From Octopus vulgaris (taxonomy: Eukaryota), in the NCBI GenBank assembly GCA_951406725.2, contig OX597842.1:14136001-14200000 (forward strand): DNA of 64,000 nt, in the 5' to 3' direction. Below the pieces are notes generated by a model, which saw nothing but the letters and a program-made list of their open reading frames with translations, was not told the origin of the DNA and did no database searches. Positions 3,283-57,613 of the stretch are shown piece after piece. Both the position numbers and the translations under genes were made by a program. Each line of letters opens with the position of its first letter. The first letter of the stretch is position 1.

Positions 3283-3354
3283 AGAGATGTTAAACGGGAA
3301 AGATTTCGGAATATTTCTCCTTTCATTTCTTTGATATCATTAAAACTCAAATTC
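3283..3354 (-). CDS. LRR exon (singleton type) NLSFNDIKEMKGEIFRNLSRLTS(L); most 3' LRR exon in the window
   Basis: 72 bp, cag|...|gtaag, phase 2-2, typical LRR consensus. Confidence 0.9.
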
Positions 3355-4384
3355 CTGTCAAATAAAATTGAGTTAATTAGAATTTGTAAGGAACTGATTT
3401 TTGATGAAGTAAAAGAAGGAAAAGAATTCAGGAAAAGCGTGAAATTAGAGGCGTCTGTCTAAAACAATTTTAAAATTTGAAAGAAGATGGAAAAGGAATA
3501 GGAGGCGAATGAAAGGAAGACTGAAAATATGTAGAAGGGTATGTAGGGACGGGGTAGAAGGAAAACAAAGAAAAGAAGAAAGGGGAAAATGAACAGAGAG
3601 AAGAAGAAGAAGCAAAACGCTGAAAGGTCGGCGGGAATCGAGTGTCCGAAAAGTATAAACCGATGAAGTGGGATGAAATCTGGAGGAACTAAAAATAAGA
3701 AGAATGAGTAGAAAATAAAGTAAAAGATGACGGCAGTGAGGCAGAAATAAAATACCTGAATGAATTTAAAGAAGTGAAAGAAAAATTAAAGAAGGAAAAC
3801 AGGAAAATAACTGAAGGAAAGTAAATAGGAGCAGAAGAAAAGGTAGAAGAAAATGCAAAAGAGGCACCAGGAAAAGAATAAAAGGTGGAGATAAAGAAAA
3901 CAAAGAAAGAGATTAAGAAGGAGCTGTCGAAAATGAAGAAGCCGAAGCAGAAGGAGTAAAAGAAAAATAAGATGAAGGAGAGAAATAAGGAGAAGGAGGT
4001 GGAGAAAGAGGAGAAAATGAAACAGAAAACGATATCGAATAAGAGGGAAAAGTATACAAAGAAAACAGAAGAAAATTGATTGAAGAAAAATGTGACGTAG
4101 AAGAAGAAGAAGAAGAAGAAGAAGAAGAAGAAGAAGAAGGAGGAGGAGAAGAAGAAGAAGAAGAAGAAGAATTATTTGGTCGAGAAGAATTTTAGGAAGA
4201 GAAAGATTAATTAGAAAACAAACAGAAAGAAGAAAAGGCGGAAAGAAGAGAAAGAAGGATATAGAGATTATTTACAACGATGATAACGGGAGAGAGGGAG
4301 AAATGTGAAAAGGGTGAAGAGCAAAAGAGTAGTAGTAGTAGTAGTAGTAGTAGTAGTAGTAGTAGTAGTAGTAGTAGTAGTAAG

Positions 4385-5140
4385 GGAAATGTGTTTGAAT
4401 TGTTTTCGTGAGAGTTACGAGGCCCTCTTGCGAGAGATACACTGGTCCGTGTAAAGTATAGATAGTAAAGCCCCGAGTGAGTTGAACGTTCAGAGTTCGG
4501 AGTCGAGGGAAGCTCGTATTAGTTCACAGTGAAGTCGTAGGTTGTCGGTTGGTTACTTCACAACGAATATTGATTGTTGGGTCGGAGAGAGATTTCTCAG
4601 TTCGATACATTGTCGTTACTGTTCTCCGCTTAATTATTGTACGTAACAATTACGTTACAAGGTCTGGCGACGAGAGCTTCGAACATCACGTGGGTTATTT
4701 AACAATTTGTTGGTGATATAACGTGTTAAATAATGGGAGACCGACTAGCTTACACAGTACAGTTTCTAAACCAGAGTAGCAGCATCATGAGTTGCAGAAG
4801 CAACAACAACTATCACAACAACAATTATAGGAGCTATAATAGGAGCCAAAGAAATCGAAAAATTAGCTAAGTTTGTTTTAGCCAGACCGCATTTCGAACT
4901 CGGTTAATGAATTCAGTTATAATTCAGAGGATAGGATAACATTTACTACTACTGAGGGCACAAGGAGATGGTTAAGCAAGATAACAAATCATGCTGAGAC
5001 GAACAAGTGAGATTTTTATTGGGAAAATTATCTCCGTTAAAGCATGAACATTAACGTAATTTCATATTACCCAAAAAGGCAAATGAGATTTGTTCTGAAG
5101 AAACAATAGATTTACTCTCGAACATATTAAAGCTCCCCTA
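4385..5140 (+). mobile_element. Gypsy-like LTR retrotransposon remnant (LTR-like segment, PBS, decayed gag)
   Basis: PBS-like TGGCGACGAG at ~4666, then decayed gag-like LLGKLSPLKHEH*RNFILPKKANEICSEETIDLLSNI. The gag fragment recurs at ~21355-21570, 34615-34830, 46535-46750 and 56080-56300. Confidence 0.55.
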
Positions 5141-6161
5141 TTTAACACTTAGATGGAATTTTGGAATATAACGAAAAAAACGAATGAAGATTTTTTGACA
5201 TACGGAGGATCAGTCAACATGACGTGAAAGTTTTTAAATTGCACCTGAGAGGTAAAGCAGTGGAGAAGGATATAGGGTTGTTGTCTTGATGACGAAGAAA
5301 TTACGATGAGGAGTAGCAGGAGGAGAAGGGGAGGAGAGTGGAAACGAAGAAGGAGGTGAAAAAGAAGACGAAGAAGGGGTAAAAGAAGGAAAAAGAAGAA
5401 AAGGTGGAAGGAAAAGAAGACAAAGAAAGGAAAATAGAAAAAGAAGTAGAATAAAAGAAGGGAATACAAAGGAGAAAAAGAAAAGAAGGAAGAGAAGAAA
5501 GGCAGAACACAAAGAGGAAGAGATGGAAGAGGAAGAAGAAGAAGTAACAAAAGAAGTAGAAGAAGAAGAAGAAGAAGAAGAAGATTAAGAAGAAGATTAA
5601 GAAGAAGAAGAAGAAGAAGAAGAAGAAGAAGAAGAAGAAGAAGAAGAAGAAGAAGATGAAGTAGAGGAGGAAGAATGATGGTAATTAGTGGCTATGGCGA
5701 CGGAAGCACCGTACATGATATACACGCCGAAATATTCATACATTTTGATACGCTCCCTTCCACACATCCATACACATTCACACAGACATATATGTATGCA
5801 AAAATAAGTTTCCTCTAACATTTTCCCACCAATTGCTACACACTCATAAATCCGAAAACTCATAAATATGCCCTCACTCATATTCACAAACGTTGGCAAA
5901 CATTACCTTGCCCTTTGGACAGACAATGGTTGTAGACATACACAGAAACATACACATTCATTCACTAAATTGTTCCCCGCAAGTATCACTCAGTCATATG
6001 TACCATATCAAGAAACGGGCCCACACTCACAGATTGATATACATGATAACACATCTTTGGAAAGACGGGTGAGGTTGCTTCAAATGAAGTATTGGAAGAC
6101 ATTACATTTATAGAAATATATCGTCAATGTCATAATAAAAATAAACACTGATTCAACTTAC

Positions 6162-6233
6162 AGACTTGTTAAACTGGACAGATTTCGGAAGGTGTCTGGT
6201 TTGAGTTCTTTGATACCATTAGAACTCAAAGAT
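6162..6233 (-). CDS. LRR exon family A: SLSSNGIKELKPDTFRNLSSLTS(L)
   Basis: 72 bp, ccag|...|gtaag, phase 2-2. Confidence 0.9.
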
Positions 6234-6952
6234 CTGGAACATAAAATTCACTTAAGAAGGAATTGTATAGAACATTTTGGCTAAAAAATAAGGATTTCGG
6301 AAGTTATGTAAAGTAGAACACGATGATAATTAGTTTCATGATGATGATGGTGATGATAATGTTGATAATGCTGCTGTTGATGATGATGATGATGATGATG
6401 ATAATGTTGATGATAATGATGATGATAATGATAATGATGAAGGGGAAGTTGAGGAGGATAAACGTGGTGGTAGAACTGGTGGAAGATGTGATGGTCCTAG
6501 TAATGAATAAGATGATGAAACAGAAGATATGAATATTTGGTTGTAGGTTTGATGACGATGTTATAATGATAATGATAATAATAATAATAATAATTATAAT
6601 ATTGATAATAATAATAATAATAATAATAATAGTAATAACAATAATAATAATAATAATAATAATGATAATAATAATGATAATAATAACAATAATAATAATA
6701 ATAATAATAATAATAATAATAATAATGATAATAATAATAATGATAATAATGATAATAATAACAATAATAATAATAATAATAATAATAATAATAATAATAA
6801 TAATATTTACAGACTCAAAAATCTATTTCTATCGAAAAAGTGTGATAATATTGAGCAAGGCAAGGTCGGGACGTGATATAAAATGGGAATATTTCAAATG
6901 TTTAGTAATATATTGTCAGTGAAATTTTATCAACAAGACTTTTGCAACTTAC

Positions 6953-55547: not shown

Positions 55548-55619
55548 AGATATGTTAATATGGGCAGGTCATGGAAGGCTCTTACTTCAATCTCACTGAT
55601 TTCATTATTTTGCAAATAT
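55548..55619 (-). pseudogene. LRR pseudo-exon family E; donor GT>TT
   Basis: Same sequence as 20820-20891. Confidence 0.8.
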
Positions 55620-57190
55620 CTAACATGAAGAATTGAAAGTATAAAACAAGTGTATAAAAATAATGTGAACATTTGGAGAGAATGAATAAAGAGGAAACGA
55701 GTGGGAGAAAGTTTTCCAGGGAGAAGGAGAATAAAAAGAAGAGAAGGAAGAGATAGAAGGAAAGAGGTGTCTGGATGGGAAGGAGTTCAGAGGAAGACAA
55801 ACAGCATCAAAATGCAAAACAGAAGCAAAAGGAGTAGAGAGAGGAAGTCGAATACCTATAATACAAACGCTAGAAATGGGATGAAATAAGGAAAGAACAG
55901 AATGAAGAATATGCAACAAATCTATGTTCAAATTATGAAGTGCTTCCAATACTTCATTTTAAGACCTCTCACCCCTCTTCCCAAAGATGTGTTATCATGT
56001 ATATCAATCTGTGACTGTGGGGCCATTTCCTTGATATGGTACATAGAACAGAGCGATACTTGCGGGGAAGAATATTGTGAATAGGATAACATTTACATCG
56101 TACTACTGAGGGCACAAGGAGATGGTTAAGCAAGATTACAAATCATGCTCAGACGAACAAGTGAGATTTTTATTGTGACAATTATCTTCGTTAAAGCATG
56201 AACATTACCGTAATTTCATATTACCCAAAAAGGCATATGAGATTTGTTCTAAAGAAACAATAGATTTACTCTCGAACATATTAAAGCTCCCCTATTTAAC
56301 ACTTGTATGGAATGTTGGAATATAACGAAAAAAAAAGAATGAATATTTTTTGACATACGGAGGAACAGTCAACATGACTTGTGAAAGTTTTACAATTGCA
56401 CCTGAGAGGAAAAGCAGTGGAGAAGGATATAGGGTTGGAGTCTTGATGACGAAGAAATTACGATGAGGAGTAGCAGGAGGAGAAGGGGAGGAGAGTGGAA
56501 AAGAAGAAGGCGAAAAAGAAGGAAAAGAAGGAAAAGGGGGAAGGAAAACAAGACAAAGAAAAGGAAAGTAGAAAAAGAAGTAAAATAAAAGGAGAAGGGA
56601 ATACAAAGAAGGAGAAAAAGAAAAGAAGGAAGAGAAGAAAAGAAGAACGGCAGAATACAAAGGGGAAGAATGGAAGAAGAAAAAGAATTAGAAGAAGAAG
56701 AAGAGGAAGAAGAAGAAGAAGAAAAAGAAGAAGAAGAAGAAGAAGAAGAGTAGATGATAGTAATTAGTGGCGATGTCGACGAAAGCACCGTACATGATAT
56801 ACACGCCGATATATTCATACATTTCGATACACTCCCTTCCACACATCCATACACATTCACACAGACATATATGTATGCAAAAATAAGTAGTAGTAGTAGT
56901 AACAGAAACATCAGTTGTAGTAGAGAAAGGCAAAGATGGAGTCGCAGAAATCGTTGGATTGGTTAAAGAGAACAAACAAGGTTGGATGTAACACAAAATA
57001 ATATACATGCCAACACTCAGATTCGAACACACACTGACACACGTATTTACACACACACACACACACAATCAGACGAGAATTGAGAAAACAGATGGGGTAT
57101 AAGGACATGGTGAGAATATGAATGGAAAGTTCTTGAATATTTGGAGTGTATTGTCAATGAAATATTATGAACGTGGCTTATTCAACTTAC

Positions 57191-57262
57191 AGATCTCTTA
57201 AACTTGGTAGGCCATGGAAAGCTCTTATTTCAATTTCTTCGATATCATTATTTTCTAAATAT
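57191..57262 (-). CDS. LRR exon family C: YLENNDIEEIEIRAFHGLPSLRD(L)
   Basis: 72 bp, intact AG/GT, phase 2-2. Confidence 0.9.
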
Positions 57263-57541
57263 CTGTTAAAAAAGAAGCAGAAGATTAAAAAGGAAGGAAA
57301 ACTCAAAATGCAAAAGAGAGCCAAACTCGTAGAAGTGAGAAGTAAAAAGCAAAAACGGAAATGCTAGAAGTAGAATGGAAGGAAGTCGCAGCAGAGAACG
57401 AAGAATAAGAAGACTAAAGTGAAAAACTTCAGTAATGGTGAAGAAATTAAGAGTAGAAAGAGTTCAGAATGAAGGGTGGGAAGATATTACATATTTAGAG
57501 ATATGTAACGAAATGTTATAAGAAAGAATGATTCTGCTTAC

Positions 57542-57613
57542 AGAGATGTTAGACTGTACAGATTACTGAAGACGCCTTCTTTGATTTCTTTCATATGATT
57601 ATCGCTCAAGTAT
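57542..57613 (-). CDS. LRR exon family D: YLSDNHMKEIKEGVFSNLYSLTS(L); most 5' intact LRR exon in the window
   Basis: 72 bp, intact AG/GT, phase 2-2. Confidence 0.9.

Follow-up and report, generated by a model that had tools for sequence, protein, structure and literature searches.

Adhesion GPCRs (G protein-coupled receptors) are known as few, conserved receptors, and we know of no variable receptor system described in cephalopods. In the general model of adhesion GPCR signalling the route runs through a tethered agonist at the GPS (PMC13197933, whose available part mentions neither octopus nor mollusc). The ‘group 3’ adhesion GPCRs of octopuses have a class B seven-transmembrane (7TM) domain with a GPS, and lie in tandem clusters, and 5 of the 22 sequences carry leucine-rich repeats (LRRs; Ritschard et al. 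2019, PMC6408891). As far as the available portions of that paper go, positive selection was found at the level of branches with no selected sites, from 21 sequences of two octopus species with fragmented models, and expression was highest in the axial nerve cord, suckers and skin of Octopus bimaculoides and in the gills of Callistoctopus minor; no haemocyte sample stands among the tissues listed there, and the text at hand gives 0 matches for ‘splic’ and ‘LRR’. Another described system is that of the brown algal ROCO genes, in which, according to the accessible part of the report, 72-bp phase-2 exons encode one LRR each and show shuffling, concave-face positive selection and splice variants, with a proposed immune role (PMC11378527).

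Here we describe an array of single-LRR exons in the genome of Octopus vulgaris, analysed from a stretch of 64,000 nucleotides (the window; contig OX597842.1, here C29, positions 14136001-14200000). The gene to which these exons belong, gene A, is an octopus adhesion GPCR with a secretin-class 7TM domain and a GPS. On balance we favour the reading that the array encodes the LRR solenoid of a variable recognition receptor that is diversified in the germline, with cassette skipping as an addition.

LRR units were detected with a position weight matrix, for which 17 units served as training set and 20 shuffles as control, and with nhmmer as a second method. Both returned the same units, exactly 31 across the whole window and all on the minus strand, with matrix scores of 61-137; the next best place scored −50, the best on the plus strand −47 and the best of the 20 shuffles −44. 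All 31 are 72 bp long, of phase 2-2, end in CT and are stop-free across 23 whole codons, and since the first base of the unit is A in 30 cases and G in one, every junction codon encodes Leu. AG/GT splice sites are intact in 27 units. The sequence-only reading from which this work started had proposed just this set (31 minus-strand, stop-free 72-bp units, 27 with splice sites, Leu at every junction), and it is confirmed. The 31 units comprise 26 distinct DNA sequences (25 peptides), and the 27 intact ones 24 (23 peptides).

Seven exon types recur in blocks across the window. Type G (KEIKEGVF) is intact at 57542-57613, 47996-48067 and 45722-45793, and type I (IEIRAF) at 57191-57262, 47644-47715 and 45364-45435. 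Type V (IEVRAF) is intact at 45999-46070 and 43711-43782, and has lost its donor (TTAAG in each case) at 55548-55619, 34080-34151 and 20820-20891. Intact exons make up all of type D (KADVF; 54277-54348, 32805-32876 and 19526-19597), type N (NNIDKI; 41492-41563, 27747-27818, 8669-8740 and 6953-7024), type S (KPDTF; 35822-35893, 22584-22655, 7967-8038 and 6162-6233) and type F (MKGEIF; 3283-3354). The other units of types G, I and V, among them the fourth with a lost donor, are given below with the evidence for their splicing.

The array does not end at the coordinates first given for it (3283-57613). Reading 384 kb around it gave 58 LRR units over 152 kb, from C29:14226404 down to 14074205, of which the window is the middle; 48 units are intact and 10 dead, and three are 69 bp long. 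Twelve of the additional units lie further 5′: past an intron at 57614-64000 they reach to C29:14226404, followed by a 100-N assembly gap at 14229549. The other fifteen lie further 3′, below an intron at 1-3282, where gene A continues on the minus strand with these units and then its downstream exons (C29:14133638 to 14026432). From the last LRR to the next gene (C29:14074301-14295000), a range that takes in the array, we found no non-LRR exon, neither signal-peptide nor LRRCT, which assigns all 58 units to one gene and rules out several separate genes in the window. The original view of cassette-type exons of one gene in a young, expanding array is borne out.

No terminal exons lie within the window, as had been noted, and those for the C-terminal part were found beyond its base 1; the 5′ exon was not found. 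Below the array lie exons for the last LRR, LRRCT, a domain with 12 Cys (ending CCIGNLCN), SEA, HormR, GAIN, GPS and 7TM. Nineteen of these downstream exons join into 933 stop-free codons, with AG/GT at the coordinates used in 18 of the 19; in the nineteenth the donor stands one or two bases beyond. The last coding exon of gene A, a short one, was not located. The GPS exon has an HL/T-S site and a tethered agonist before the first transmembrane segment (TM1), and reads CSCDHLTSFALLM. In a protein model identical to gene A exons (P0014), Pfam recognises 7tm_2 (PF00002, E 3e-29) and GPS (PF01825, E 4e-13), and over GAIN-7TM a profile of the family aligns with chains of ADGRG2 (E 2e-82) and ADGRG6 (E 1e-73). 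The LGR/RXFP/GRL101-type or TIR receptor suggested earlier does not hold: LGR, RXFP and GRL101 have a rhodopsin-class 7TM domain and LDLa, whereas gene A has 7tm_2 and GPS, and LDLa is absent from the Pfam scans of 4 + 6 proteins. The public O. vulgaris model CAI9743441.1 (668 residues) fits the gene A exons from SEA onward. It leaves the TM5-7 exon, which is open to TM7 in gene A, at an inner GT (C29:14026653), giving a product with five transmembrane segments.

Evidence for the remaining domains comes partly from paralogs. The model of paralog P0025 is a confident LRR solenoid (predicted local distance difference test, pLDDT, about 90). For that of P0113 (mean pLDDT 57) the best Foldseek match, and the sole one at E < 0.001, is the GPR126 ectodomain 6v55 (E 8e-6); residues 140-234 form a ferredoxin-like, SEA-like fold (Z 7.7-7.9 to SEA chains, 8.4 to GPR126), in a wide fold search that probed chiefly the SEA part. 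Pfam matches HormR (HRM) weakly; its single GAIN match, in paralog P0012 with E 4e-4, falls below the cut-off. The Cys-rich domain weakly resembles a Ly6/three-finger domain: its CCIGNLCN end fits the LU pattern CCxxxxCN, Pfam gives UPAR_LY6_2 at E 0.019, and the three PDB matches are LYPD1 and ACVR1 only (E 0.17-0.56), with low model confidence there. An atlas search with this domain gave no match.

The region 5′ of gene A is the assembly gap, and neighbouring gene B has a signal-peptide/LRRNT exon 2.9 kb before its first LRR. A misplaced or inverted 5′ half of gene A was considered and rejected: the candidate first exons at C29:14815148 and 15725859 lead to LRRCT exons of their own, and a third, at C29:15962823, leads to 8 LRR units, with neither a gap nor an LRRCT exon in 90 kb, and looks like a truncated paralog.

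Selection was analysed on 109 distinct exons of genes A-F, the latter five being paralogs. Amino-acid change between the closest copies is concentrated at exon codons 1, 3, 4, 22 and 23, which we take, by the usual LRR architecture, to be the exposed positions of the LxxLxLxxN strand. In the P0025 model residue 23, Leu and residue 1 lie in the strand, so that the two most variable codons, 1 and 23, flank the strand Leu. Over 74 short edges the proportion of nonsynonymous differences (pN) was 0.093 at concave and 0.007 at core codons, with a synonymous proportion (pS) of 0.028; 69 of 121 pairs picked by intron likeness gave 0.096, 0.004 and 0.023. A codon model on a shared tree returned dN/dS ratios (omega) of 2.5 concave, 0.16 core and 0.87 other over the whole tree, and of 4.5, 0.31 and 1.18 once the 41 long ones among 215 branches had been cut; concave omega exceeds 1 with a likelihood-ratio test p of about 1e-12. 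The low core omega indicates that the LRR units are kept as protein. These patterns suggest diversifying, immune-receptor-like evolution of the concave face and conservation of the core.

Gene A is one of many. A probe from the TM5-7 exon of gene B matched 71 places in the genome, 55 of them at E <= 3e-15, and first-exon and LRRCT probes matched at least 38 and at least 37, with 17 LRRCT exons in C29:13.1-16.3 Mb. Arrays hold 58 LRR units in gene A, 38 in C, 32 in D, at least 18 in E, 12 in B, 3 in F (in the 40 kb scanned) and 8 in the orphan at C29:15962823. Of 46 hits of a profile of the Cys-rich domain, 3 have no species name and all the others are from Octopus. The second-best match to the 7TM exon of gene A is P0004 (UniRef A0A0L8GYU7, 56% identity), which is listed as group 3 in supplement 2 of PMC6408891, in the part available. 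By homology to this listed member, gene A appears to belong to the octopus-specific group 3 expansion. Family models in databases are split and named TLR5, chaoptin, slit or decorin, others ADGRG6-like.

Within the family, ectodomains and 7TM modules appear to have different histories. In the one assembly on which this comparison is based, genes A and C are 94-100% identical from the last LRR to HormR and 70-88% from GAIN exon 3 onward, whereas A and F are 73-91% identical up to HormR and 97-100% from GAIN exon 3 onward. Gene C lies inverted, 0.9 Mb away, and has the array order in common with A at 95-97% identity, with a different 7TM; that it might be the other haplotype of A is ruled out by the 70-88% identity of its GAIN3-7TM exons. 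Gene D combines an F-like LRRCT/Cys-rich part with an A-like GAIN-GPS and has no SEA, and near-copies of the 7TM exon of A (96-99%) also occur on C8, C9 and C10. For 18 sequences, the LRRCT+Cys-rich tree, where A pairs with C, and the GPS+TM5-7 tree, where A pairs with F (support 100 in both), reject each other (approximately unbiased test, p 0.006 and 1e-48, 2000 replicates). Judging from these alignments and trees, paralogs swap whole ectodomains at the GAIN exons.

Some family members depart from the full architecture. Gene D looks truncated, with neither SEA nor TM2-7 in the stretch read. In the models P0110, P0113 and P0118 a second SEA-like part is followed by the last exon of the family, which closes the model with no GAIN or 7TM, and they may be soluble forms; P0110 has two Cys-rich domains, and P0129 a Death domain.

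Turning to splicing, 24 runs contain the stretch, none of them recorded as RNA, and four were aligned on 10150-13780. RNA-like contigs of two runs, X2 (38 contigs) and X5 (10), pile up on exon bins. Of the 15 joints listed for the two, 14 fall at exon ends, a few bases from them or inside exon copies, and the last connects two intron copies; CT..AC ends are visible at joints with exact boundaries. X1 (161 contigs, intronic cover) and X3 (7) have none. By X2 and X5, the exons look transcribed and spliced at the predicted boundaries. The units concerned, all on the minus strand and all found by matrix and nhmmer, are type G at 13307-13378 (intact; contigs joined at both ends), 12057-12128 (intact; joint at 12128) and 10785-10856 (intact; joint at 10785); type I at 12980-13051 (donor lost here, GATAG; spliced forms of the type in X2 and X5), 11699-11770 (intact; loose ends at 11699 continue into other LRR exons) and 10428-10499 (intact; joints at both ends); and type V at 12334-12405 (intact; joints at 12334) and 11062-11133 (intact; joints at 11130-11133).

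These joints bear on an alternative that we regard as unlikely, in which regulated combinatorial splicing is the main diversifier and cells or tissues express their own subsets of the 48+ exons, as a Dscam/protocadherin-like code or an immune repertoire. Reading joints and loose ends gave 13 junction types in the two runs, three of which (V-V, I-I and a gene E-like FQYLTNLNY exon to I) fit no neighbour order in genes A, C, D or E, and I-to-G is abundant in X2 (depth 166, compared with 238 for V-G and 279 for G-I). However, 10 of the 13 are neighbours in gene A, C or D if dead exons are counted or skipped, and the joining of adjacent exons (V-G, G-I, D-G, and I-V in X5) argues against mutual exclusion of the Dscam type. 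The contigs also include variants of exons that the assembly does not have, which again differ at codons 1, 3, 4 and 23, so the odd junctions may stem from other alleles, paralogs or graph chimeras rather than from skips. RNA editing was rejected as the source of these variants, with T>C places numbering 1, 0, 0 and 1 in the four runs and no excess. That every exon is frame-symmetric, a point on which the sequence-only reading leaned, is correct and would suit combinatorial use; by itself it is no evidence of it, given that ROCO and gonadotropin-receptor genes have 72-bp phase-2 LRR exons too (PMC11378527, in the part available).

In two other octopuses, database isoforms of paralogs leave out single LRR exons. 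A RefSeq paralog of O. bimaculoides has an isoform X1 of 617 residues and isoforms X2-X4 of 593, each without repeat 4, 10 or 12; one of O. sinensis has X1 of 1208 and X2-X6 of 1184 residues; and the pair XP_029657302/XP_036355967 has 157 and 133. A further O. sinensis paralog, with 7 isoforms listed (525/501/477 residues), would suit combinatorial use, but most RefSeq isoforms miss just one repeat. The sets differ by whole 24-residue repeats at varying positions, in a comparison completed for 3 of 7 sets, with the P0029/P0032 pair compared by eye; paralog models include up to 14 repeats. A scan of 3.8 kb for docking and selector sequences gave 9 short inverted pairs, with no clear docking site among them.

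Two sequence features near the splice sites may be recorded. A 22-nucleotide AT-rich palindrome lies 33-34 bases past each type-G donor (10731-10752, 12002-12023 and 13252-13273) and could pair across exons. The acceptor TTACAG and donor CT/GTAA are reverse complements, longer when an exon starts and ends with ATAT, and could form a hairpin that masks both splice sites; in 11 of the 27 exons its pairing probability exceeds 0.5, and exon starts and ends covary slightly (p 0.0008, the exons being related). This hairpin is largely built into the consensus and is a lead only.

The dominance of neighbour junctions would also fit a long solenoid of the ordinary, constitutive kind that serves in adhesion or neural wiring; skipping would then be noise, and variation would reflect drift or a co-evolving host partner. 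Chaoptin is an example of a long, constitutive LRR protein of adhesion. Group-3 genes of one O. bimaculoides scaffold peak in the axial nerve cord, at 0.37-0.52 of signal (PMC6408891, supplement 2, as available). We nevertheless think this quite improbable, as an omega above 1 restricted to the concave face, array lengths of 2-58 and ectodomain swaps fit a fixed ligand poorly.

Much of the window consists of mutual copies of 90-99% identity amid long microsatellites. On the minus strand at 48068-57613 lies a tandem unit of 9.55 kb (exons G-I-dead V-D), which repeats up to the 100-N gap. Four whole units of this kind precede the exon at 47996; they are 24-36 substitutions apart (0.25-0.38%), and one has a private 4-kb insertion, which, on comparison within the assembly, favours real copies over an assembly echo. 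A 5.7-kb block at 23045-28748, holding an N-type exon and a retrotransposon, is 99.2% identical to 36795-42499, and at 9973-13595 V-G-I exon triplets of 1.27 kb stand in tandem, offset copies being 90% identical. The arrays thus grow by multi-exon block duplication, to between 2 and 58 units among neighbouring genes. Of the DNA-level shuffling and exon skipping envisaged at the outset, block duplication and ectodomain exchange are supported, and skipping in predicted isoforms of paralogs only.

Such an array might instead be a decaying or 5′-truncated copy, swollen by neutral repeat instability and partly an assembly error. The 5′ gap, the 10 dead units, transposon-laden introns, blocks of 99% identity and truncated neighbours (gene D, without 7TM in the stretch read, and the orphan at C29:15962823) would all suit this. 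It is decidedly unlikely in view of 933 open codons with AG/GT sites, a core omega of 0.16-0.31, the substitutions and private insertion among the 9.55-kb units, an inverted paralog that keeps the array order with another 7TM, and spliced contigs, 17 of the 38 in X2 matching at >= 99% identity. Near-identical repeats able to recombine, together with the hypervariable concave face, could further suggest somatic DNA rearrangement that assembles or deletes LRR cassettes as in the lamprey VLR system. We give this hardly any credence: the units behave as normal exons, with splice sites, a place within a gene and joining by splicing, and no incomplete germline gene with flanking cassettes was seen.

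Several points weigh against a germline-diversified receptor with added skipping. Separately fitted IQ-TREE codon trees gave a concave omega of 0.73, at a saturated tree length of 94 and with the core fit staying at its start values; concave codons show more synonymous change as well (0.054 versus about 0.02); and recombination, which the codon models leave out, can inflate omega. Dead units make up 10 of the 58, and a single dead exon has been copied six times. The signal-peptide/LRRNT exon of gene A was found neither at the gap nor elsewhere, and CAI9743441.1 starts at SEA and omits the LRRs. The runs are contigs, guessed to be RNA, from other animals, and the RefSeq isoforms are predicted models of paralogs, none of them gene A, and are the only place where skipping is known.

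We nonetheless favour the germline-diversified receptor. The data show the make-up of the gene and its open frame, the duplication of blocks, the pattern of selection, the mosaic nature of the paralogs and splicing at predicted sites, and from these the following mechanism may be proposed. The receptor would read signal peptide/LRRNT, a variable number of LRRs, LRRCT, a three-finger-like domain, SEA, HormR, GAIN/GPS and 7TM. Its concave β-sheet may bind a fast-changing extracellular ligand, either the surface of a microbe or parasite or a self protein that is polymorphic, and binding or pull would free the GPS tethered agonist for 7TM signalling, as in other adhesion GPCRs. Diversity would arise chiefly in the germline, where unequal crossover may gain or lose blocks of 1-5 exons, selection would fix new residues on the concave face, and recombination within the conserved GAIN exons would place entire ectodomains on different 7TM modules. 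Isoforms may be added where single in-frame exons are skipped, dead exons being carried without frame cost; since the junction falls mid-strand (residue 23, Leu, residue 1 of the next exon), each skip would create a new pair of exposed residues. The freedom of symmetric exons from frame cost also explains expansion and tolerated dead exons without regulated combinatorics. The role may be immune or neural: the evolution is arms-race-like, and the published expression of relatives lies in arm cord, skin and gill.

Further elements lie in and beside gene A. Copies of a non-LTR (long terminal repeat) retrotransposon lie inside the duplicated 5.7-kb intron block, at 23487-27341 (+) and about 37241-41082 (+), with RVT_1 (E 7e-28) and zf-RVT domains, the first copy having a 1033-codon open frame, a stop and a 251-codon frame. 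Another interspersed element, 95-98% identical, occurs once per duplicated unit (15350-18027, 29199-31978, 50746-53461 and 60292-62868); two of its short frames have no Pfam match. The private 4-kb insertion, from about 62932 to 64000 and on (C29:14198932-14202959), is 98-99% identical to copies at C29:15170145 and C29:15882387 and is a recently mobile element. Between genes A and B, frames at C29:14285691-14288587 presumably resemble, by their motifs, a Helitron/PIF1 helicase.

Block-duplicated arrays, the concave dN/dS pattern and ectodomain swaps at GAIN exons are new relative to the literature searched, which covered few subscription journals and gave no description of any of the three; the available part of PMC9795677 does not mention LRRs, and that of PMC13428168 has no account of such arrays either. 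A large, under-annotated family with immune-receptor-like evolution is a candidate, open to concrete and inexpensive testing, for the means by which octopuses recognise ligands that change or mark their cells, and it provides a natural series of ectodomain/7TM chimeras for the study of adhesion GPCR modularity. Long-read, single-cell, infection and population data that already exist could be mapped anew to the arrays. A bolder version, possible but doubtful, is that the ~50 octopus LRR adhesion GPCRs form a variable repertoire through allelic and paralogous differences in exon number and concave residues, ectodomain exchange and cell-specific, regulated skipping. If true, single cells (haemocytes, gill or skin epithelia, arm-cord neurons) would carry solenoid combinations of their own, a GPCR-coupled analogue of VLR or Dscam with no counterpart known in animals.

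Among known systems, the lamprey VLR (background in the available part of PMC13428168) is alike in its hypervariable concave LRR face, whereas gene A, with units spliced inside a gene, bears no sign of somatic cassette assembly. Arthropod Dscam has similar tandem exon arrays, but its mutual exclusion is absent from gene A, where neighbours are joined; the VLR- and Dscam-type mechanisms named in the sequence-only reading find no support. In vertebrates, ADGRA2/3 also place an LRR ectodomain on an adhesion GPCR and ADGRE5/CD97 skips cassettes of EGF ectodomain repeats, but in both the repeats are few and conserved, and ADGRA has an Ig domain, of which none was found in the octopus gene. ADGRG6/GPR126 (CUB-PTX-SEA-HormR-GAIN-7TM), the best Foldseek match of a paralog model, is alike in the stalk from SEA to 7TM, whereas the multicopy, fast-evolving octopus family has an LRR array, LRRCT and Cys-rich domain in place of CUB-PTX; Pfam finds no CUB or PTX in the complete, LRR-carrying paralogs P0007 and P0009. 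Mytilus P0033, an LRR-EGF-GAIN-7TM receptor with near-identical tandem LRRs, is a possible parallel case, its domain order indicating that adhesion GPCRs with LRRs arose in bivalves too, on a different stalk. The published account of group 3, in the text available, describes no exon arrays, concave-face selection, Cys-rich/SEA stalk or ectodomain swaps, and its 21 sequences compare with 55 7TM exons at E <= 3e-15 in one genome here. The closest working likeness would be the brown algal ROCO arrays. Those belong to cytoplasmic ROC-COR GTPases, which the exons downstream of the octopus array, coding for GAIN and 7TM, do not encode; in gene A the array forms an extracellular domain on an animal GPCR, in a family that exchanges its ectodomains.

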